10,173 nt of DNA, from NCBI GenBank assembly GCA_034440375.1, contig JAWXBZ010000181.1, positions 1 to 10,173 on the forward strand. The letters are read 5' to 3'. The translations under genes and the position numbers were made by a program. Position 1 is the first letter of the stretch; every line of letters starts with the position of its first letter. The notes under the pieces were generated by a model. That model saw nothing but the letters and a program-made list of their open reading frames with translations. It had not been told where the DNA came from and searched no databases. This stretch comes from Candidatus Eiseniibacteriota bacterium. Lineage in GTDB: Bacteria; Eisenbacteria; RBG-16-71-46; JABDJR01; JAWXBZ01. Positions 1 to 9,996 of this stretch are shown one piece after another.

Positions 1-326
1 GCTTCAATGGAGCCGCGCTCACGTGAGCGCGGATACCGCGTGGTGGATCGTCGCATGATGCCGCTGGCGAGTTGCTTCAATGGAGCCGCGCTCACGTGAG
101 CGCGGATACTGATGACGAGACCGCCGCACCCATCCATGCAGAGGACGCTTCAATGGAGCCGCGCTCACGTGAGCGCGGATACTTGCTCAGTTGCCCGCTT
201 CTTTGCGGGCTTATTTTGAGCTTCAATGGAGCCGCGCTCACGTGAGCGCGGATACAACCTCGCCACGATCTACTCGGTCGCCGGCGTCACGCTTCAATGG
301 AGCCGCGCTCACGTGAGCGCGGATAC
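1..326 (-). CRISPR. CRISPR array: 5 identical 36-bp repeats and 4 spacers (37, 37, 37, 35 bp), possibly truncated at the window start
   Basis: The repeat GCTTCAATGGAGCCGCGCTCACGTGAGCGCGGATAC occurs at 1-36, 74-109, 147-182, 220-255 and 291-326, with unique spacers at 37-73, 110-146, 183-219 and 256-290. On the minus strand it reads GTATCCGCGCTCACGTGAGCGCGGCTCCATTGAAGC, ending in ATTGAAGC as is typical of type I-G repeats. The leader/cas2 side is at 327+, so transcription is inferred on the minus strand and spacer 256-290 would be the newest. Confidence 0.99.
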
Positions 327-503
327 CGCCCGGGCCATAACTGGCGATGCCAGAAGCACTTCCAGGATGGCATGCGAGCGGGGGCTAAACATCGACTGCG
401 AAATCATGCCTGCCAAGCCCATTCCTTTCTCAACTCATAATGGATTCACGGGTTATCTCACGCGAGCGCCCAGGCGAGCCCGCTCACCACTACCCTGCTC
501 GCC
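327..503 (-). promoter_or_regulatory. CRISPR leader
   Basis: 177-bp non-coding stretch between the cas2 stop and the first repeat. It has an AT-richer core (about 421-460) and repeated GCGAGC(G) motifs at 374-380, 462-468 and 474-479, plus an inverted copy at 497-502. Confidence 0.85.
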
Positions 504-797
504 TCAGACGATGACCGCGGTTTCCGCTTGAGGAGCGGGAAGTGGCTCTCCAAGATACTCGAAGGCGACCGCGGCGCGACCCTCTGTCGGCCCAATGTCC
601 ACGATCATGACCCGGTCCTCGGCATGATGAATGATCCCACCCAGGCATTCTCGCATTTTCATTTTCTCGACATCGGATAGACTGCAGAGGAAGACCGAGT
701 ACTGCACCGGGTCACCAAAGCCGTGCAGTTTCTTGAATACCTGCCGGAGCCGCTTCGGATCGCTGACGTCGTAGGCGACAAGATAGCGGTGGCGCAT
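504..797 (-). CDS. cas2: CRISPR-associated endonuclease Cas2
   Basis: 97 aa. N-terminal YLVAYDVSDPKRLRQVFK and G-x3-QYSVF-x-C-x-L motifs are characteristic of Cas2. The ATG lies 5 nt after the cas1 stop and the gene is adjacent to the leader. Confidence 0.97.
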   Translation of the reverse strand: MRHRYLVAYDVSDPKRLRQVFKKLHGFGDPVQYSVFLCSLSDVEKMKMRECLGGIIHHAEDRVMIVDIGPTEGRAAVAFEYLGEPLPAPQAETAVIV

Positions 798-802
798 ACT
801 CG

Positions 803-2467
803 TCAGCGGGTGGTGAAGGGACGGTAGGCCGGGATTTCCCCGAGAACGACCGCCCGCAGCACCCGAGCCTGCAGTTCGATGATCCGCCGATAGCTGACCG
901 TGTAACCGAACATCGGGTGGGTCACCATCTGGTTCAGCCGGCGCTCGAATCCCTCCAGCACAGTCTTTCTCCCGCGCGGGGTCAGCATCACACCGCGCGC
1001 CCGCTTGAGGAAATCCTGGGGACGGAGTTCACCCTGATTGAAGAGCGTGAGGCAGACGGAATCCGCGATCAGTGCCCGGAACTCTTCGCAGAGATCCAGC
1101 GCCAGCGCCGGCCGGCCGTACTTCGGCGCGTGATAGACACCTCGAAAGACTTCGAAACCGACCGACTGCGCGGCGACCAGGCACTCCTTGATCAGCACCG
1201 AATACAGGAAGGAGAGGACCGCATTGACCTCATCCCTCGGCGGCCGGCGATTGCGGCCCTGCTCACGAAAGACATTGCCTGCCCATTCGCCGGCACCCCG
1301 GAACAGCCGAGGCAGCGCCCCGAAATAGAGCTGCGCGCCCATACCCTCAATACCGAGCAGCGTCGCCACATCCGTCGTGTGCCGAGCCTGCCTGGCATGC
1401 AGCGCCAAGCGGCCGAGCAGCCTGATGTCCCGCTCCGGCAGGTTACGGCGGAGGAGGGTTCGCTGATTCAGAATCTTGCCCGACACGAGCGCCCGGGCGA
1501 CCGCCAGCGCGGCACCATTCTCAATCATCCGGTGCTGGGCGATACGCACCTCAATATTTTTGTGAGGCAGCCCGCTGGTCATGCCGTAGAACCAGCCCCC
1601 GAGACTGAGGTAGATGATCGGGATCTCCCGGTTGAGCAACTCACGGAGCGCCTGGGTCGTGATCTGAACGTGGCCGAAGATGGCGACCTGCGAGAGTTCC
1701 ATCAGGCGGACCTCCCGGACCGTCGATTTCTTCGTGGAGACCACGATCCTTTCATCCCGCTTGCCGATTGTCGTACCCTGCTCCTGCACGTACAGCGGTA
1801 CCCGATCGTCCCGCCCGGGTACGAGGCGTCGTGGCTCCTGCTCCGGTTTCGGGTGGCGCAACTGGTTGATCTCGTCAGGCAGGCAGATGCCGGCGAGAGA
1901 GCAGCGGACGCACTTCGGGCTATCCTGAAGCGGCGGGGGGAGCCTCCCCTCCGCCGCCAGCCCACGGAGCCCGGTGACGGCGTCGCGCGTGAGCTGTTCG
2001 AGTTCCGCGTCGAAAGGAACCTCTACGCGGGTTTTCGACTCCGCGAAGTACAGTACTCCCCCATCACATTCGTAGCCGTTGTCACGCAGAATCAGCCCCT
2101 GCACACAGAGCTGCACCCGCTCCGGGTCGAAGGCACGGGCCGGGATGTCCGGCACGGAGCCTCGCTTGTAGTCCACCGGAGTGGCGCGGCGACCGTCCAC
2201 CTCAAGCAGGTCCAGCCGGGCAATGCAGCCGAGGCTGGGGGACGAGAGCGTCACGGAGCGGGCAACAAGGCTGCGAGCTTCCGTATCCTCAGCCTCCGGT
2301 ATCTCGGTGGCAGCCTCAACGTCCACTCGGCGGTGGGTCCACCGCCCGGAGACCGTGTCCGCATTGTCGTCCCACTCGCCCTGGACCCACTCGAGGTAGG
2401 CTAGGCGGGGACAGTAGACGTACTCGTTGACCATGCGCGCGGGCACCAGATCGGGAGTCTCGCTCAT
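803..2467 (-). CDS. cas1: Cas4-Cas1 fusion (adaptation nuclease/integrase, GSU0057-like)
   Basis: N-terminal Cas4: YVYCPR, RecB-like H...LDLLE...[16 protein letters not shown], and the C-x2-C-x5-C Fe-S motif ([14 protein letters not shown]). C-terminal Cas1: [45 protein letters not shown]. Start placed at ATG 2467 ([12 protein letters not shown], 554 aa); the ORF-track start at 2515 lies inside the vapB promoter/operator and is less likely. Confidence 0.96.
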
Positions 2468-2477
2468 GGGGAAACTA

Positions 2478-2506
2478 TTGCGGAGTGGTGTGACATCGCG
2501 TATGGT
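2478..2506 (+). promoter_or_regulatory. Predicted sigma70-type promoter of vapBC
   Basis: TTGCGG (2478-2483), a 17-bp spacer, then TATGGT (2501-2506). The predicted start near 2513 falls in the operator, upstream of the vapB RBS (GGAG 2530-2533). Confidence 0.55.
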
Positions 2507-2523
2507 ATATATCACTGATATAT
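2507..2523. promoter_or_regulatory. Predicted VapBC autoregulatory operator (inverted repeat)
   Basis: Perfect 8-bp inverted repeat ATATATCA-C-TGATATAT, very AT-rich in a GC-rich background, immediately upstream of an AbrB-type vapB. It resembles the TATAT-rich palindromic operators bound by AbrB-fold VapB antitoxins. Confidence 0.7.
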
Positions 2524-2540
2524 CTCAACGGAGATCTCCG

Positions 2541-2828
2541 ATGCCCAAGGCACCAGAGGACCGCGAGCGCAGGAGTTCTGGCCGAGCCCGGCTGTTCTGG
2601 AATGGGCGCTCGCAGGCGGTCCGCCTCCCGCAGGAATTCCGGTTCGAGGGAGATGAGGTACTGATCCGGCGGGAGGGAGCGCGGGTGATTCTTGAGCCGG
2701 TGGCGGAGCGAGGGTGGCCCGAGGGCTACTGGGAGGTGCTGAAGACCGGCGCGCCGCTGTTCGAGGACTTTTCACTGCCCCTGCCGCTGACACCGGGCGG
2801 GACCGATGTGGATCTGGATCGCCGGTGA
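2541..2828 (+). CDS. vapB: VapB antitoxin, AbrB/MazE/SpoVT DNA-binding domain
   Basis: 95 aa from ATG 2541 with a [46 protein letters not shown] is the classic VapB/VagC AbrB signature, followed by an acidic C-terminal part. Its stop overlaps the vapC start (GTGA). Confidence 0.95.
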
Positions 2829-3226
2829 CTCATCTGCTGGATACCAGCGTGTGCGTCGAGGTGCTGCGCGGAAATCCACGCGTCACCGCGCGCCTCTCGG
2901 CGCTTCGGGCCACCGACGTAGCGGTGTCCGCGATGACACTCGCCGAACTGTGGCATGGCGTCCGAAAGAGCCAACGGGCCGACGCCATGCGTGAGGTGGT
3001 GGACCGGTTCCTGGCACCGCTCAACGTGGTGCCCTTCGAGCGGGCGGCGGCCGAAGCCCATGCGGCGTCCCGGTACGCGCTGGAAGGCAAGGGTCATCCT
3101 ATCGGCGAACGGGATCTGATCATCGCCGCGACAGCCCTGGCGCATGGCCTGACGGTCGTGACCGGGAATCTTCGCGAGTTCACCCGGGTGCCCGGGCTTC
3201 GAGTGGAGGAGTGGGGACGGGGGTAG
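2825..3226 (+). CDS. vapC: VapC toxin, PIN-domain ribonuclease
   Basis: 133 aa from GTG 2825, overlapping the vapB stop. PIN motifs [45 protein letters not shown] and VPGLRVEEW are present with the acidic catalytic residues (D, E, D, E) intact. Confidence 0.96.
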
Positions 3227-3260
3227 GGGGATGGAGAAGGGCGCAGAATGCCGGAGGGCC

Positions 3261-4865
3261 TCAGGACCCCAACGCCGCGAACAGTCCAACACCATGGAAA
3301 CGGCCCGCACCAAGGCATATCGGACCAGGCACTCTCACGGGAGCATTGCGCGCATCCCGCCAGGTGAGCATGACGTGATAGCGGGCGAACTGCCTCAAAT
3401 GACCGGGCACCCCGTAACGATCGGCCAGGTCGGTACCGGACCAGAAGCCGACCTTGCGCCACTGGAGTTCCGCCTGACTCGACAGCACCCGAGAGAAACC
3501 GGCCTGAGTAATCGCCTTCCGGAGCAGTCCATCCACGCGAGCATGGAGTTGATCCAGCAGTCCCCTCTGTTCCTCCGCGCTGACGCCGCGGCTTAGCCGC
3601 CGCCGATAGTGTCTGGGGTCGTCATAACCGGGGAGGACCACCGGCGTGACGGTCGCCCATGATGCAGCAGCCTCGGTGTAGCAACGGATGGTCCTGTCGT
3701 CCGCGGATATTGGAGATAGAAGCGCGACGGGTTGATTCGTGTTCTCGTCAATCAGCTCCTGGCCTGCCAACGCACGCCTGGCCCAGGCGATCTCGGGTTC
3801 GCAGTCGCCGGCGAAGGCGGCAAGAATTCCCCGCCGGATACTGCCAACCACCCGGGTGGTGCCCCACCCCCGCCCCTCAAGGCTGGGCAGAGGCAAATAG
3901 GCGAATCTTTTCGGCCCAACCGCGACGTGGCGAGTATCGTCTTTCGATTCACCATGACCGAGGACGAAAGAGTTGATCCGCTCGTCGGGCCAGCCAACCC
4001 GCGCAGCGGTGCGCCGGGCCACATGCCGCATCATGCCTGCGACGGTAAGTGCTCGCCGGACGACATCGAACGGACGGAAACCACTGGCATCGAGCTTCAG
4101 CAAGGAAAAGGCGGCGACCGGGCGGCTTGGCGGGTCGGTCGCGCGCCGGTACTCCACGCTATCGTACATGGTCAGCGGCGGCGGGGCGGTGAACGTCCAG
4201 CCATCCGGGCTCAGACGGTCGAGAAACCGGGCATGCCGGTGAATCAAGGCTTCGAGCGTGCCTTCCTTCGGCACGCGTAATCCATCAGTCGTTGTTCCGC
4301 CAAGCGGCAGCCAGCGCTCCCCTGACAGACTATCCAACTGCTCGTCGGACATGATTGCGCCATGCCCCACGACCATGTCTGCGCCCCAGCCCAGGGCAAT
4401 GACGCTGCGTGCGATGTCGGAGAGCGTGGCAAGATGGCCCCGAACTTCGTCTGTGAGCGGGTCCGGCAGGGACCAGAGGTAGTGGACGGCGTCGCCATCG
4501 CGCAGGAGTGTAGGGCGGACGGTCTTCATCGTTCGGTGCGTCGCCGGATTGGCATCGCCGACATTGGAGTAGTTGCCGCGGCACCACGCCCGCGCGACGA
4601 CGTCCATCGCGTTGTTGGGCACCGAGAGGCAATAGCCTGTTGAAGCCCTGACGCCGACTGGGGCGACCATCGTCGGCACGCGCTGCTGCTCCAGCCACTC
4701 CAGAGCAGATTTCAGCGACTCCAGGCGTTGCTGCCCCGCCGCCGCCGCGACCAGCGCCTGGAACACCCGCAGCGGCGACGGCGGCCACTCCGGTTCACCA
4801 CCGTCCCGCCGGCCGTGGAACAGCGGATCGAGGAAGCGCATCGAGAGATCAAATTGCAAAGGCAT
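3261..4865 (-). CDS. csb2: Type I-G Csb2 (Cas5-Cas6 fusion, GSU0054-like)
   Basis: 534 aa. N-terminal FHG...EWPPSPLRVFQALVA and ALEWLE Cas5-like motifs, a central LGWG, WATVTPVVL, and the C-terminal Cas6 glycine-rich loop GPICLGAGRFHGVGLF. GGAG RBS 6 nt before the ATG. Confidence 0.95.
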   Translation of the reverse strand: MPLQFDLSMRFLDPLFHGRRDGGEPEWPPSPLRVFQALVAAAAGQQRLESLKSALEWLEQQRVPTMVAPVGVRASTGYCLSVPNNAMDVVARAWCRGNYSNVGDANPATHRTMKTVRPTLLRDGDAVHYLWSLPDPLTDEVRGHLATLSDIARSVIALGWGADMVVGHGAIMSDEQLDSLSGERWLPLGGTTTDGLRVPKEGTLEALIHRHARFLDRLSPDGWTFTAPPPLTMYDSVEYRRATDPPSRPVAAFSLLKLDASGFRPFDVVRRALTVAGMMRHVARRTAARVGWPDERINSFVLGHGESKDDTRHVAVGPKRFAYLPLPSLEGRGWGTTRVVGSIRRGILAAFAGDCEPEIAWARRALAGQELIDENTNQPVALLSPISADDRTIRCYTEAAASWATVTPVVLPGYDDPRHYRRRLSRGVSAEEQRGLLDQLHARVDGLLRKAITQAGFSRVLSSQAELQWRKVGFWSGTDLADRYGVPGHLRQFARYHVMLTWRDARNAPVRVPGPICLGAGRFHGVGLFAALGS

Positions 4866-4877
4866 CTTGTTCTCCGG

Positions 4878-5984
4878 TCACTCGGCCTTCTTGGCGTCGG
4901 CCCCGGCCCGTTTCTTCTTCTTGTCCTTGGCGTCCGCGACGTCCTTCCTCGCCGATTCCTTGTCGAACTCAACCTCACGATCCTCCCCGATGCCAAATGC
5001 CTCGGTAGCGGCCTTGGCGTAGGCGAGCGCGTCCGGATGCGTCAGGGCAGCGTCTTCACGCCGGCCATCACCGTAGACCGCCTTGAACTCACGCGGCTTT
5101 TCGGGATCGAGCACGAGATTGCAGCCCTGCCTAAGGTAGCCGGATGGTGCGTGAGTGAACGCGGTCAGGGCAAGACCGAGGACGTAGCGACGCAGAACCA
5201 TGGTCTTCTGCTCGTCGCTGCCCGCAGCGAGCAAGCGTAACGCGGCGAGGTGGAGTGTAGAGTCGCGGCGGATGCCACCCGCGGCGATGACGCCGCCATG
5301 GGTGGCAGAGCCTTGTACGTCATGAAGAAACCCCCTCTGTGAAAGCGGGTTTTTCGTCTTCACCTTACCCTCAGTGGTCCTGAGGCCCTCGGGCTCCTCG
5401 AGCAACCCTTCATCCACATAGTCGACGGCCGGCACGTACGCTGCCGAGCGCGTCAGTTGACGAACATCGAGCGCCCGAATCGTCGAGGCGATTAATCGCG
5501 GCAGCTTGGCCTGTGTGTCACGGGAGTCCCACGCGCCGAAGACGAGCGATGTCGGCGCGATCTTCGCCAGCGGCTCGGCGTCACCGTTCAACACCGCCTT
5601 AAACGCCTCCTGGAGTTTCTGCTGCAGCGCCGAGCAGCGGACGATGGCGTCGCCGGCGCGGTGTCCCGCATCGAGCAGATTCACGCGCTTGTCGCCAGCC
5701 TTCACGACGACCTGTGGTACCAGGCGCGCGTAGTCCCCCTTGGCAAAGAGCGGCTCGATGCGGTTCGCTTGGGAACCGACGCTGTCGATCAGACAGACGT
5801 TCTTGCCGTCGGTGAACTCATCAATGTTGTAACCGCCCTTGAAGGCCTTGTCTTCGCTGGCGGCGAACGTCGCCGGGAACAGGACGCCGTCGTGGCCCTC
5901 GACGGGCATCAGGTGCTCCCGGATCACCAGCGCAGCTGGGCCAGTGTCCGTCAACCAGGCGTCAAACTGTTCCAGATCGCTCAT
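4878..5984 (-). CDS. cas7: Type I-G Cas7 backbone (Csb1, GSU0053-like)
   Basis: 368 aa from ATG 5984 with an AAGGAG RBS, 2 nt after the upstream stop. Motifs LFPATF, CLIDSVGSQANRIE, GHRAGDA and PTSLVFGAWDSR are typical of Csb1/Cas7u. The ORF-track start at 6074 overlaps the upstream gene. Confidence 0.95.
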   Translation of the reverse strand: MSDLEQFDAWLTDTGPAALVIREHLMPVEGHDGVLFPATFAASEDKAFKGGYNIDEFTDGKNVCLIDSVGSQANRIEPLFAKGDYARLVPQVVVKAGDKRVNLLDAGHRAGDAIVRCSALQQKLQEAFKAVLNGDAEPLAKIAPTSLVFGAWDSRDTQAKLPRLIASTIRALDVRQLTRSAAYVPAVDYVDEGLLEEPEGLRTTEGKVKTKNPLSQRGFLHDVQGSATHGGVIAAGGIRRDSTLHLAALRLLAAGSDEQKTMVLRRYVLGLALTAFTHAPSGYLRQGCNLVLDPEKPREFKAVYGDGRREDAALTHPDALAYAKAATEAFGIGEDREVEFDKESARKDVADAKDKKKKRAGADAKKAE

Positions 5985-5986
5985 CC

Positions 5987-6841
5987 TTAGCTCCTTGCAA
6001 ACGGGGTGGCCGGCAGGAATGCCTTGTGCTTTCTCTGGTCGGTCCGGAAGGCATTCTCGAAGCGGAAGCCGCAACTACCGACGTGCGGTAGCAGGCCGCA
6101 GACCGCCGTCGGCGCAATGCGGGCCTCCAGCGGGACGGCCCATGTATGGTAGTCGAACACGCGCCATGTGCTGGTGGGCATGGGCCGAAATCGCTGCAAG
6201 CCGACAAGACACAGGGACTCAACCGCAGGAAACGCAACCGTTGTCATCCCTTTGAGGGCATCGGGAGCGAAACCGATATCAAGAGATCGCGCACTGGCTC
6301 CACGTCTTGCGTCGAAATAAAACGGCTCGCGCTTCTTGCCTTGCTTCAACTTGCTATTGTTAGCCTTGCCCTTGGTATCTGGAACCGGATCGAAGACAAC
6401 ACGCCCATCGTTGAGTGGATCGGCACACGACGTATCTAGAGCGCTTGCCATGGCGCGGTAGATCACGCGGACGTTCATCGAGCCAGCCCAAGGCTTCAAC
6501 GATTTATCGGTCCACCAGTCAAGCCGCAACAGAGGTAACGGGTCAGGCAGCACGAGATCCAGAGGCTGCGCGTTGCTGTCTCCCTCCGCCTCGTCATCTT
6601 CGGCATCTTCGGCAATGTCGCCATCCGCAGTGTCAATGAGAGAGGTCTTTAACCTGTCCAGAAGCACCGGCAACGAGCATCCTTCGTCAGCACGGATGAC
6701 GAACCGGTCGCCTTCGAACCACCCTTCCGCTCCGCCCCAGAGCCGATCCGCCAATTCCAGCAGGCCACAGCAGGCGAAGAACTGGCCCGGATTGGTCGGG
6801 TCAACGCGGACGCGGATCGCAGCTTCGGGCTGCTCGCTCAT
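5987..6841 (-). CDS. csb3: Type I-G small Cas8 subunit (Cas8u2/Csb3, GSU0052-like)
   Basis: 284 aa from ATG 6841, overlapping the cas3 stop (ATGA). N-terminal VDPTNPGQFFACCGLLELA..W..AEGWF, LRLDWW, K.WAG, FYFDAR, LDIGF and VESLCLVGLQRFRP match my recollection of the GSU0052/Csb3 family. The position between cas3 and cas7 fits. Confidence 0.85.
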   Translation of the reverse strand: MSEQPEAAIRVRVDPTNPGQFFACCGLLELADRLWGGAEGWFEGDRFVIRADEGCSLPVLLDRLKTSLIDTADGDIAEDAEDDEAEGDSNAQPLDLVLPDPLPLLRLDWWTDKSLKPWAGSMNVRVIYRAMASALDTSCADPLNDGRVVFDPVPDTKGKANNSKLKQGKKREPFYFDARRGASARSLDIGFAPDALKGMTTVAFPAVESLCLVGLQRFRPMPTSTWRVFDYHTWAVPLEARIAPTAVCGLLPHVGSCGFRFENAFRTDQRKHKAFLPATPFARS

Positions 6842-9594
6842 GGCACGGCCTCGTCCGTCGGAGTCGAGGTCGGGGCGGTAGCCCCCACGCCCGTCGCTTC
6901 CCCCGGCTGGGACGCGAGGGCATCCGCAGTCCGCACCAGCGACTCGAGATACGCCAAGCCCCACCGTCCATACTTGCGCTGGAGCCGGGCAAAGCGGCGA
7001 GGAGCCTCGCGCGCAATCCTCGCTGTGCCTTCCTCGGTACTCTCGGGGTCAAACACCTCGTCGGCGGGAAAGTGCGGCCGTGCCCGGCCGTGGTGGGCGG
7101 CAATGAAATGCAGGACGAGATCCTGCACATCGAGCGTGAGTCGCTGGAAGTCAGGAACGTGCGCAAGATCGAGGAGCGATCCGAATTCGTGGCGGTAACC
7201 GCTGAGGTCAACGGGTCGCATCTTGCCCCCGGACTTTGCCAGTACTTGCTCAGGGTAGCACCGGTTGCCGATCGATCGCTGCCAGATCACTCGGCGTTTG
7301 CCTAGATCGTGCCACCGAGCTGCCAGCGTGACTGCCAAGGCTTCCGGATCGCTCAACCCGAGCCTGGCGACGAGCGAACTCGCGAAGCGCTCGGCGGATA
7401 GAAGGTGCGGCTCAAGTTCCTGCGGCTCCAGGGCGGTGCGTGACCCGTCGTCGTCCGCAGAGCGGGGCAGCACGTACCAGAGCCAGTTCCGTCTCCCAGG
7501 CATCGCTTCGCCGTCATCCTGGTCATCGTCAGCATCAGGCTGGGTGTCGATGGCCAGCACCAGCCTCATGCCCTCGGGCGGCGCATCGTTGTCCCACACT
7601 CTTCGACGACGAGGCTGACCGCGCTCGTCCTTCCACTCGTCCGTGATGTCATAGCGAATGGTCTCCTCGGCGGCAGCGCCGCCGTCGAGTATGCCGTTGA
7701 TCAATCCCCCCGTACTTGGCGGCAACAGCACGGTACAATTCGCCAAATTCACCTCCGGTTTGTTCTTTGGATCCTTCTTCACGAGTTCTGTCAAAGCGAG
7801 GACTCTGACATTGCCCTCGGGATCGACGAGCCATGCAGACAGGTCTGGACACCGTTTTGCCATGGTCTCCAGATGCTTGAAGACCCGTGCGGTACGGTCA
7901 CGAAGCAGCTCGTGCTGCTTGAGCGGGTAGTCCTCCAGCAGAGCTTCCGGCTTGTACTTCTCGATCAGGGCACCGGTGAGGCATCCGACCTCTTCGCGCC
8001 AAGCGACGTGGGTCTCGGACGGCTCCCACTCGGCGACCCCATGGAGCCAATCGGCCACCGGCGGGCGGCCAGGCAGCTTCTCACGGAGCGATGTCAGCGC
8101 CCAAGTATCGAAAAGGATGTCGGTTGCGGGAGGGATTTCCGGCGGTGGTGTGAAGGCGGCCTGCCGCTCGGCAGCAGGCAACCCGTTCAACACGGTAGGA
8201 CTGGCGTCGTGCCGCCTGGCAGCGTTCATGGGAAGACTGATGAGCAACTTTAGCGTGTTCCACCGTGCCTGCTCGTACACGTCATCTTTCTTCTTCTCGT
8301 CTTGTTTCTCTTCGGACACGACGTTGATCCGCGCATCACCGTCGCCGAAACGATTCACCCGGCCGAAGCGCTGAGCCATGCTATCGAAGGGAGTCAGATC
8401 ACAGACCAAGTGGTCGGCCGAGATGTCGATCCCCACCTCTCCGGCAGAGGTACACACAAGATAGACGGTGCCCGACTGAGGGTTGACTCCCGGGTTTGGT
8501 CTCGGCATGAAGCGAGCGAAGATGGGGTCCTCCTGCGCCAGTGCGTCGCGTTCGAGCCCGCGCATGGTGCCAGTCAGGACTTGAACAGCGAGTTGCCTCT
8601 CGCGGATCTCGGCTGTGACCTTCTCGACGTACTCCAGTTTTCGGAGAAAAACAAGGATCGCTTGGCCGCTCGCCTTGTGCTCTAGCGCGCGCTCGGTGAT
8701 GGCAGCGGGCAGCTTGGCCTCGTCGGCTGCGGATGAAAAGATGATCCCTTTCCTTGCCTCCAGCCGTTTCCCCAACACCTGGTGGGAGCGGTCGGCGTGA
8801 GTCAGCAAGGACTGCTCACCACCACTGCGCGACGTGGCGGTCAGCGCCATCACCTGGAACCGACGGAACTCGCCGCACCGCTTCTGCTCCGACTCGACCG
8901 TGGCGACGAGTTCCTGGAAGGCTGGCTCCAGATGGGCCTCGTCGTGGACCAGGAGTGCGTCCTGGCCGAGGAAGCCGGCGTGGAGCGGGCGGGACTTGAA
9001 GCCGCGGCCATAGCCGGCGAACAGCAAGCGGCTCCCGATCATGTCCACGGTGCCGATGATGATGGCAGGGCGCGAGGGATCGCGGCTCCAGCCACCGTCA
9101 TCCGCGAGTTGTCCGCGCAAGGTGCTTACCGTGACAGGGACCTCGCCGTTCATGCCGAGGAGTGAGGTCCCGGCGAGACAGGCTCTCAATGCGGAGAGCG
9201 CCTCGCGCTCCTCCGGCTTGAATGGGCTGTCTCCGGCGTCTGTCAGCCGGTCCAGTATGCCGCGCGCTTCATTGGTAGCCTGATCCACAACGGTGCGGCG
9301 ATTCACCACCCACACCAGGCGGCGTGGCAACGAGAGCTGCCCCGAAGATGCTTGCCTCGCGAGCGCCAGCAGCCAGATCGGGATCAAGGACGTTTTCCCC
9401 GTACCCGTCGGCAAGCTGACCAGGGATGGCACGTGACCGGAGGCGAGCATCGCAAACGCCCGTTCCTGCCAAGGGAATGGCGTGCGGCCTGTCAATAGGC
9501 TGAAATAGCGACGGAAGTATTCGTCCTGCTCGAAGCCAGCACAGGGCGTCACAGACGTGTCGCACATCCTCCCTCCCAAGCCCGCTTCGCTCAT
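6838..9594 (-). CDS. cas3: Type I-G Cas3 helicase with C-terminal HD nuclease
   Basis: SF2 motifs PFPWQ, LPTGTGKT, VVNRRTVVDQ, IIGTVDMIGSRLLF, DEAH, TATS, TSAGEVGIDI and QRFGRVNRFG. C-terminal HD domain: LEPHL...WHDLGK...YRHEFGS...AAHHGRARP...LESLVRTAD. An alternative start at ATG 9567, preceded by GGGAGGGAGG, is plausible. Confidence 0.97.
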   Translation of the reverse strand: MSEAGLGGRMCDTSVTPCAGFEQDEYFRRYFSLLTGRTPFPWQERAFAMLASGHVPSLVSLPTGTGKTSLIPIWLLALARQASSGQLSLPRRLVWVVNRRTVVDQATNEARGILDRLTDAGDSPFKPEEREALSALRACLAGTSLLGMNGEVPVTVSTLRGQLADDGGWSRDPSRPAIIIGTVDMIGSRLLFAGYGRGFKSRPLHAGFLGQDALLVHDEAHLEPAFQELVATVESEQKRCGEFRRFQVMALTATSRSGGEQSLLTHADRSHQVLGKRLEARKGIIFSSAADEAKLPAAITERALEHKASGQAILVFLRKLEYVEKVTAEIRERQLAVQVLTGTMRGLERDALAQEDPIFARFMPRPNPGVNPQSGTVYLVCTSAGEVGIDISADHLVCDLTPFDSMAQRFGRVNRFGDGDARINVVSEEKQDEKKKDDVYEQARWNTLKLLISLPMNAARRHDASPTVLNGLPAAERQAAFTPPPEIPPATDILFDTWALTSLREKLPGRPPVADWLHGVAEWEPSETHVAWREEVGCLTGALIEKYKPEALLEDYPLKQHELLRDRTARVFKHLETMAKRCPDLSAWLVDPEGNVRVLALTELVKKDPKNKPEVNLANCTVLLPPSTGGLINGILDGGAAAEETIRYDITDEWKDERGQPRRRRVWDNDAPPEGMRLVLAIDTQPDADDDQDDGEAMPGRRNWLWYVLPRSADDDGSRTALEPQELEPHLLSAERFASSLVARLGLSDPEALAVTLAARWHDLGKRRVIWQRSIGNRCYPEQVLAKSGGKMRPVDLSGYRHEFGSLLDLAHVPDFQRLTLDVQDLVLHFIAAHHGRARPHFPADEVFDPESTEEGTARIAREAPRRFARLQRKYGRWGLAYLESLVRTADALASQPGEATGVGATAPTSTPTDEAVP

Positions 9595-9726
9595 TGGTCG
9601 GTCCGCCGTCCAAGAAGTGTCAGGATGAACTTCAGGGGTCCGCCAACTGCTTGGCCGGCAGGGCCACGAACTGGCTTGGCAACCCGCGGGCTACTGGTCA
9701 TCGAAACCGATCAGGAGGTTTTAGAC

Positions 9727-9996
9727 ATGACAGGCGCTGGAATGGGGCGCACAAAGCCGACCACGGATACGGAGGCTTGCCGGTCGTCCGCTCAAAGAAC
9801 GTCGGGTAACCGAGTAGCTCGCCGGGTTGCACGAAGGGGCTCACAGATCTGGGGGAATCGCTCATTCCACCGGACTCCAGGCACGCGGGGAGGGGCTGTC
9901 AGGACCAGGGAAAGCTGCGACAGGGGTGTGACAGTGCCTCCACGCCGAAGCGAGCGCAAGGAGGCTTGGCGCCTCAGTGTCCCCTCAAGCGGCTGA
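9727..9996 (+). CDS. Possible small hypothetical protein (89 aa), divergent from cas3
   Basis: Consensus Shine-Dalgarno AGGAGGT (9713-9719) 7 nt before ATG 9727. The product is Arg/Gly/Ser-rich with no recognisable domain and may be spurious. Confidence 0.25.
   Translation: MTGAGMGRTKPTTDTEACRSSAQRTSGNRVARRVARRGSQIWGNRSFHRTPGTRGGAVRTRESCDRGVTVPPRRSERKEAWRLSVPSSG

Follow-up and report, generated by a model that had tools for sequence, protein, structure and literature searches.

We analysed a stretch of 10,173 nucleotides (nt) from a Candidatus Eiseniibacteriota bacterium (contig JAWXBZ010000181.1, assembly GCA_034440375.1), referred to as the window throughout, in which a vapBC toxin-antitoxin operon is embedded in a type I-G CRISPR-Cas locus. 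The pair is located on the plus strand between csb2, the final gene of the interference module, and the cas4/cas1 fusion gene of the adaptation module, and is antisense to the cas genes. The junction between csb2 and cas4/cas1 is a recurrent cargo slot, or hotspot, of type I-G loci, and we think it rather likely that the window carries an autonomous, independently acquired VapBC cassette in this slot, which probably stabilises the locus.

A vapBC operon between the interference and adaptation modules

The junction of the window contains the following features:

2468..2540, no strand: 73-base-pair (bp) divergent intergenic region from the cas4/cas1 start to the vapB start, read from the sequence
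2507..2523, no strand: candidate VapB operator, the perfect 17-bp palindrome ATATATCAcTGATATAT, unique in the window
2530..2534, plus strand: GGAGA, read as the ribosome-binding site, 6 nt ahead of the vapB ATG
2541..2828, plus strand: vapB, AbrB/MazE-type antitoxin of 95 amino acids (aa) (PF04014, MazE_antitoxin, E 4.2e-9)
2825..3226, plus strand: vapC, PIN-domain toxin of 133 aa with a GTG start (PF01850, PIN, E 5.4e-19)
3227..3260, no strand: 34-bp convergent gap from the vapC stop to the csb2 stop, without a terminator-like hairpin

A preliminary description of this DNA had reported an intact vapB-vapC pair on the plus strand, placed between the two modules with flanks of 73 and 34 bp and without a transposase or a clear target-site duplication. 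All of this was confirmed: both frames are intact, the PIN and MazE domains score above the Pfam cut-offs, and the positions agree. Both gaps are too short for another gene, transposase included, and no target-site duplication was found, as the flanks of vapBC have no k-mer of at least 6 nt in common. The gene content given for the locus also stands, except for the name csb3; in NCBIfam this protein is called Cas8g2 (TIGR04106).

The antitoxin gene lies directly upstream of the toxin gene in one operon, and the GTG start of vapC overlaps the TGA stop of vapB (2826-2828) as GTGA, a 4-nt overlap. VapC matches the PIN family PF01850 over residues 4-124 with 69.4 bits (cut-off 23.6) and aligns over its full length to VapC proteins of solved structure (6ifc_A, E 8.3e-22; 3tnd_A, 3e-21; 3zvk_A, 1.6e-20). 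Four acidic residues, D6, E41, D97 and E118, show little or no variation in an alignment of 32 sequences made from the nearest relatives and align with D or E of 6ifc and 3tnd. VapB carries an AbrB/MazE DNA-binding domain at its N-terminus (PF04014, 36.7 bits, cut-off 24.7), which aligns to the VapB of 3zvk (3zvk_E, E 8.4e-9) and of 6nkl (3.8e-7). Its subfamily comprises 2412 homologues, mostly of about 93 aa, with the same layout, in which the invariant DNA-binding core is preceded by a tail of about 14 variable residues and followed by a conserved tail.

More specific models are approached and not reached. The models for tRNA(fMet)-specific endonuclease VapC remain below their cut-offs (NF047863, 123 versus 140 bits; NF010285, 85.3 versus 143), as does NF047959 (43.5 versus 80), and the cut-off of NF040493, the model for a VapB subfamily, is narrowly missed (56.1 versus 60). 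We therefore assign the pair only to the PIN/VapC and AbrB/MazE-VapB families and treat cleavage of initiator tRNA by VapC as a lead only.

A structural model of the VapB-VapC complex reached a score of 0.78, compared with 0.27 for the best of three controls; the mark applied is passed by 58 of 80 solved complexes and by two of 110 mismatched pairs. Contact agreement between runs was at least 79%, and the partner predicted local distance difference test (pLDDT) value was at least 70. In the model, residues 57-83 of VapB contact VapC residues including 7-8, 41 and 96, beside the acidic residues. This supports an antitoxin that would bind VapC and cover its active site, with the reservation that VapBC complexes have been solved and that the pass may mean likeness to these only.

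Judged by its sequence, vapBC is thus an intact, autonomous and ordinary type II toxin-antitoxin pair. That VapB and VapC stay below the NCBIfam cut-offs would also fit a decaying or inactive remnant without present function, but we hold this to be highly improbable: both frames are intact and coupled, VapC has kept its four acidic residues and VapB its invariant core, codon use and GC content at third codon positions (GC3) are like those of the neighbouring genes, and the complex model passes its controls. Separately, we considered whether composition marks the pair as foreign, and it does not: GC3 is 0.78 for vapBC versus 0.68-0.80 for the cas genes, and the codon-use cosine is 0.875, where cas fragments of matching size have a mean of 0.902 and their 5th percentile lies at 0.871.

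The csb2-cas4/cas1 junction in related type I-G loci

A Csb2 profile search of species-representative genomes gave 395 confirmed type I-G loci, and the best 80, numbered with the prefix L, were analysed. Their Csb2 proteins range from 67% down to 43% identity to that of the window. The junction is readable in 50 of the 80, where csb2 is followed by an adaptation gene on its own strand; 22 have no adaptation gene in the available sequence, and in eight it is found elsewhere.

Of the 50 readable junctions, 37 have a gap of 200 bp or more between csb2 and the adaptation gene, and in 32 this gap reaches 400 bp; its median length is 631 bp. Gaps of 400 bp or more are close to absent from the other cas-cas junctions (cas3-cas8g, 1/69; cas8g-cas7, 0/74; cas7-csb2, 1/80; between adaptation genes, 0/46). 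The hotspot is mainly tied to the gene order of the window: where csb2 is followed by cas4/cas1, 28 of 35 gaps reach 400 bp, compared with only four of 15 in the order csb2-cas2-cas4/cas1, in which the junction is usually tight. The latter variant was found in L004, L006, L007, L011, L012, L019, L020, L021, L022, L025, L039, L042, L069, L077 and L078.

Two of the 80 loci, L008 and L009, are on contigs of archaeal (Methanothrix) metagenome-assembled genomes, with Csb2 proteins 56-57% identical to that of the window; L008 groups with an Acidobacteriaceae locus on the Csb2 tree, which suggests transfer between domains. The best Csb2 representative, P0121, is a protein of 723 aa whose Csb2 match begins at residue 241 and which may have an N-terminal fusion or a mis-called start.

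Toxin-antitoxin and other cargo at the junction

All 269 open reading frames (ORFs) of at least 55 aa in the 37 gaps that reach 200 bp were scanned against Pfam. Domains of toxin-antitoxin type were present at 13 of the 50 junctions and belong to about nine families; a strict count gives 11 to 13. We take DUF433/DUF5615 and nucleotidyltransferase/HepT to be toxin-antitoxin pairs and count them as such. The 13 junctions carry:

L001: MazE; DUF433 with DUF5615
L002: DUF433; a sub-threshold Xre/MbcA match
L007: nucleotidyltransferase with HepT
L008: YafQ/RelE
L010: HicB
L013: Zeta-like
L018: HicA with HicB
L024: PIN with VapB_antitoxin
L036: nucleotidyltransferase
L048: PIN
L051: RHH with PemK; DUF433; HepT with nucleotidyltransferase
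L060: PIN
L073: PIN with VapB_antitoxin

Toxin-antitoxin genes thus recur at this junction, whereas the vapBC of the window does not. None of the 80 related loci has a match to its VapB or VapC at E ≤ 1e-5, and the PIN genes found at other junctions are only 19-25% identical to its VapC; it is because of these two results that we regard the pair as independently acquired. L024 and L073 carry antisense VapBC pairs in the geometry of the window, but with an antitoxin of another family (PF09957) and with PIN domains that are 25% and 19% identical, respectively, to the VapC of the window. An ancestral insert common to the window and its nearest loci was also considered and rejected: the MazE-type ORF of L001 gave no BLASTP alignment with the VapB of the window. 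The orientation of the cargo varies as well. Toxin-antitoxin genes lie on the cas strand in eight of the 13 loci and antisense in six, L051 having both.

Other cargo recurs at the junction, namely Uma2 (four loci), ORF6N and Fic-like proteins (three loci), 23S_rRNA_IVP and DUF6429. The Uma2 genes (PF05685, putative restriction endonuclease) are antisense at L013:10536-11298, L014:10582-11022, L023:9619-10269 and L036:10155-10727; that of L013 is seemingly split into two ORFs, and Uma2 also occurs upstream of cas3 at L036:2296-3045. A set of ORF6N, Fic-like C-terminal, Schlafen AlbA_2 and 23S_rRNA_IVP cargo is located after csb2 at L015:4411-6787, L016:9724-10515, L045:2642-3205 and L043:9743-10941. 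This set echoes the Fic and 23S_rRNA_IVP genes in cas loci that are treated in a passage of PMC3936711.

Twelve junctions of 420-2630 bp gave no Pfam or NCBIfam match (64 ORFs compared with NCBIfam): L003, L021, L032, L041, L049, L058, L059, L065, L070, L074, L077 and L078. Among their unmatched ORFs are one of 358 aa at L032:9584-10660 and one of 301 aa at L059:9702-10607. Six presumed partner ORFs also had no match in NCBIfam.

Toxin-antitoxin genes in cas loci, including at the type I-G junction, are known (PMC9638904, PMC3936711, PMC4390879); what is added here is a quantification of the junction. The account of the Thioalkalivibrio sulfidiphilus locus in PMC9638904 concerns the same subtype and the same junction and places five genes between Csb2 and Cas4-1, two toxin-antitoxin systems among them, whereas the window has a single antisense VapBC and no other cargo. 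The relevant passages of PMC3936711 describe PIN toxins, MazE-type and other antitoxins and 23S_rRNA_IVP genes in type I cas loci, as well as a Fic toxin with an adjacent antitoxin in a cas locus of Geobacter sulfurreducens, and those of PMC4390879 describe vapBC pairs interspersed in Sulfolobales cas cassettes, for which a maintenance role was proposed. These cases resemble the window in combining PIN toxins and MazE-type antitoxins with cas loci, mostly though not always on the cas strand. Both maintenance and dormancy-coupling roles have been proposed for such genes; the passages of the two papers on the subject contain neither a tabulation of the type I-G junction nor a comparison with flanks, although the supplements may hold such tables. 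Our literature search likewise found no paper that tabulates toxin-antitoxin genes at the type I-G junction against flanks, again with the proviso that supplements may hold such data, and the pertinent parts of a 2025 review (PMC12737573) do not mention VapBC, VapC or type I-G.

Measured against these results, the preliminary description was right to suspect a recurrent cargo slot, and the skip it had pointed to in the G. sulfurreducens locus tags is in print, where the type I-G locus is given as GSU0051-GSU0054 and GSU0057-GSU0058 (PMC8036902, passage on this locus). It had called for a tabulation of the genes between csb2 and cas4-cas1: the recurrence of toxin-antitoxin genes as a class (13/50) is borne out, that of the same vapBC (0/80) is not, and the pair is accordingly not conserved at the junction. 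The novelty is also lower than assumed, since cargo at this junction had been noted in Thioalkalivibrio (PMC9638904, same passage as above).

Comparison with the flanks of the loci and turnover on the Csb2 tree

Two kinds of flank served as controls. Stretches of matching length taken from the DNA upstream of cas3 (27 loci, 25.5 kb, 162 ORFs) contained toxin-antitoxin genes in one of 27 cases, a ParE-like gene in L048. The first 1.3 kb or less past csb2 in loci where no adaptation gene follows (27 loci, 31.6 kb, 209 ORFs) contained none (0/27). Fisher tests, which treat loci as independent, gave p = 0.0024 for 13/37 versus 1/27, p = 0.0003 for 13/37 versus 0/27, and p = 0.015 for 13/50 versus 1/27.

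The most frequent gene of the first control is a WYL/WCX regulator gene (about 340 aa), located just upstream of cas3 in eight of the 27 loci (L001:2037-3098, L002:345-1370, L013:1151-2191, L014:1041-2114, L016:1925-2920, L059:1446-2516, L060:1869-2897 and L073:2104-3138). The window stops 579 bp upstream of cas3, too short to judge the presence of this gene.

A Csb2 tree was built with FastTree from 51 rows, of which 14, including the window, carry the label of a toxin-antitoxin at the junction. This label requires 13 changes on the tree, and the starred branches alone force at least seven. In 500 shuffles the mean was 12.5 changes, and in about 405 of them the number was no higher than the 13 observed. 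Close sisters differ in the trait (L045/L048, L013/L014 and L023/L036). The label is thus scattered over the tree, which argues that the trait has often been gained and lost and is not inherited with the locus.

These observations also bear on the possibility that vapBC is a stand-alone abortive-infection or persistence module, acting against phage on its own, brought to this place by co-location in a defence island and unconnected with the upkeep or regulation of the cas locus. The family is indeed widespread outside cas loci, and the fast turnover of the trait on the Csb2 tree would agree with such a module. The VapC subfamily occurs on at least 5000 plasmid records (among the matches listed, none reaches 60% identity, and the highest value is the 49% of a match from Deinococcus), and 588 relatives of VapC as well as the 2412 of VapB were retrieved. 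The nearest VapC relatives in a large protein set are 60-63% identical and are mostly found on short contigs; clusters of the VapB, VapC and Csb2 proteins of the window cover eight, seven and six contigs, respectively, with a longest contig of 11654 in each case, which is only suggestive. However, neither VapB nor VapC matches a PADLOC defence model, and the flanks rarely contain toxin-antitoxin genes (1/27 and 0/27), so that simple co-location in an island fails to account for a place within the locus. Taking both sides into account, we consider a stand-alone module unlikely.

The divergent region and possible coupling with adaptation

The 73-bp region must contain the promoter of vapBC and any promoter that cas4/cas1-cas2 have of their own. 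A scan of positions 2300-3500 revealed neither a sigma-70 consensus promoter nor an intrinsic terminator at the threshold used; by eye only, a weak promoter candidate can be seen, TTGCGG (2478-2483) and TATGGT (2501-2506) separated by 17 nt. The palindrome at 2507-2523 is located 18 bp ahead of the start codon of vapB, with about 40 bp between it and that of cas4/cas1. With at most three mismatches, 0.01 chance matches are expected, and its half-sites occur nowhere else in the window, which makes it the obvious candidate for a VapB operator.

This arrangement allows a further explanation, in which vapBC is coupled with adaptation: VapB or the VapBC complex would co-repress cas4/cas1-cas2, and depletion of VapB under stress or infection would lead both to VapC-mediated arrest and to de-repressed spacer acquisition, the former buying time for the latter. 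The palindrome does lie inside the only DNA available for a promoter of the adaptation genes, no terminator-like site separates the convergent or the divergent units, toxin-antitoxin genes are enriched at the junction over the flanks, and L024 and L073 repeat the antisense geometry. A hypothesis that links immunity to dormancy has also been published (PMC3506569, in the passage that states it). Against this, at least as a general rule, cargo on the cas strand in eight of the 13 loci, with antisense cargo in six, means that a divergent geometry is not required, and an insert that is antisense will in any case face the gene downstream of it. The cargo consists of about nine unrelated families with rapid turnover, no second operator-like site was found near cas3 or the leader, and the divergent regions of L024, L073 and L010 have no inverted repeats, that of L018 having one imperfect 11-nt palindrome. 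We hold coupling with adaptation to be improbable. As junction toxin-antitoxins occur in both orientations, nothing points to a dedicated coupling with type I-G immunity, and any functional coupling to immunity is speculative.

Proposed role of the VapBC cassette

For the autonomous VapBC cassette that we favour, the following course of events can be envisaged. The pair would be transcribed rightwards from the 73-bp gap and, given the GGAGA and GTGA elements in the sequence, translated as a coupled pair. VapB may bind the 17-bp palindrome with the AbrB-type domain at its N-terminus and so repress the operon, as its family and the uniqueness of the palindrome suggest. Its C-terminal part (about residues 57-83) is predicted by the complex model to wrap VapC beside D6, E41 and D97 and to block it.

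In the VapBC family VapB is the labile partner. When the pair is no longer expressed, because the DNA has been deleted or lost or because of host shut-off, the freed VapC would be expected to cut RNA and halt translation, and by likeness to its closest solved relatives its target would most likely be initiator tRNA. The net effect is likely to be a selfish persistence that also stabilises the locus, since deletions spanning the middle of the locus would be penalised. As a side effect the cas operon would be split, so that cas4/cas1-cas2 would need a promoter in the 73 bp or read-through antisense to vapBC. We propose no dedicated molecular link to Cascade or Cas3. Addiction is in our view a plausible inference.

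Several points weigh against the autonomous, locus-stabilising cassette. Two of the 13 calls are weak, namely L002 (DUF433 with the sub-threshold Xre/MbcA match) and L036 (nucleotidyltransferase alone). Each control, at 25.5 and 31.6 kb, is shorter than the junction total of 43.6 kb, and the first is imperfect, being dominated by the WYL/WCX gene. The nearest Csb2 in a set of 5.8 billion proteins is only 70% identical, so that there is no close relative in which presence and absence of vapBC could be compared. No NCBIfam VapB or VapC model reaches its cut-off, so that any target specificity is tentative. Finally, the excess of toxin-antitoxin genes over both flanks makes a purely neutral "permissive site" insufficient. 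The position inside the locus may be favoured by selection, as a toxin-antitoxin in the middle would penalise deletions and link both modules, or by module exchange or an insertion bias.

Comparison with known toxin-antitoxin systems

Enteric VapBC has a plasmid-stabilising role. The pair of the window shares with enteric VapBC (Shigella and Salmonella; PDB 3tnd and 6ifc) and with Rickettsia VapBC2 (3zvk) the order of antitoxin and toxin and the overlap of the genes. The proteins of these structures were named tRNA(fMet)-specific endonucleases by the PDB depositors. In contrast to the enteric systems, the VapC of the window, less than 50% identical to plasmid copies, sits in a cas locus and not on a plasmid, and its VapB differs from the enteric and Rickettsia antitoxins by the variable N-terminal tail of about 14 aa and a C-terminal tail of its own, both common to its subfamily.

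A second comparison concerns CreTA and CrePA, CRISPR-repressed toxins that guard cas genes (PMC9458426, PMC10097628, bioRxiv 10.1101/2024.01.05.574328). As described there, they share with the window a toxin embedded among type I cas genes, through which losing the locus could carry a penalty. In those accounts Cre toxins are repressed by Cascade via an ectopic, repeat-derived RNA, whereas the window has a protein antitoxin. A creA-like ectopic degenerate repeat was not found in the window, where the best ungapped match to the repeat outside the array is 21/36, and the four spacers that are visible have no match to the window better than 22/37. With no ectopic degenerate repeat next to vapC, the pair was rejected as a toxin of the CreTA type.

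A broader idea, which we regard as a long shot, is that the boundary between interference and adaptation in type I-G loci is a docking site that is selected and not merely tolerated. Its toxin-antitoxins would then guard CRISPR-Cas by means of proteins, as a type II counterpart of CreTA, and antisense ones would in addition put the adaptation genes under the antitoxin operator. If this were true, loss of antitoxin during infection would trigger growth arrest and spacer acquisition together. About a quarter of the sampled loci have a toxin-antitoxin at precisely this boundary; these modules represent about nine families and come from many phyla, whereas the immediate flanks almost never contain one. 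The old idea that type II toxin-antitoxins maintain CRISPR-Cas loci thereby becomes testable in a compact 10-kb system. For annotators, it is useful to expect that type I-G operons are often split between csb2 and cas4/cas1.

The surrounding type I-G locus

The remaining features of the window form a type I-G CRISPR-Cas locus that is complete and has its cas genes on the minus strand. All six cas models score above the NCBIfam curated cut-offs, in agreement with Pfam, and the set required for type I-G is present (Cas3g, Cas8g, Cas7g, Csb2, a Cas4/Cas1 fusion and Cas2, with an adjacent array):

1..329, no strand: CRISPR array with at least five copies of a 36-nt repeat at a period of 71-73 bp, found by repeat search and extending past the window start
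504..797, minus strand: cas2 (PF09827, E 5.3e-17; TIGR01573, 38.6 bits, cut-off 24.5)
803..2467, minus strand: cas4g/cas1g fusion of the adaptation module, 554 aa from the ATG at 2467 (NF049935, 752 bits, cut-off 560)
3261..4865, minus strand: csb2, the type I-G Cas5-Cas6 fusion and final gene of the interference module (PF09609, E 3.8e-172; TIGR02165, 356 bits, cut-off 45)
4878..5987, minus strand: cas7g/csb1 (TIGR02570, 179 bits, cut-off 38)
5987..6841, minus strand: cas8g2 (TIGR04106, 162 bits, cut-off 125)
6838..9594, minus strand: cas3g helicase-nuclease (TIGR02621, 671 bits, cut-off 400)

As the NF049935 profile begins at residue 7, the ATG at 2467 yields a full-length cas4g/cas1g. Two further ORFs on the plus strand, of 123 aa (9625-9996) and 101 aa (226-531), have no match in Pfam, NCBIfam or PADLOC; the latter, which coincides in part with the array and leader, is unlikely to be a gene. 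Rfam gave no match within the window. The CRISPR repeat contains a perfect 20-nt palindrome (window 13-32 and each further copy), from which a long hairpin in the precursor CRISPR RNA is to be expected, in line with the long hairpin of type I-G repeats described in a passage of PMC9638904.

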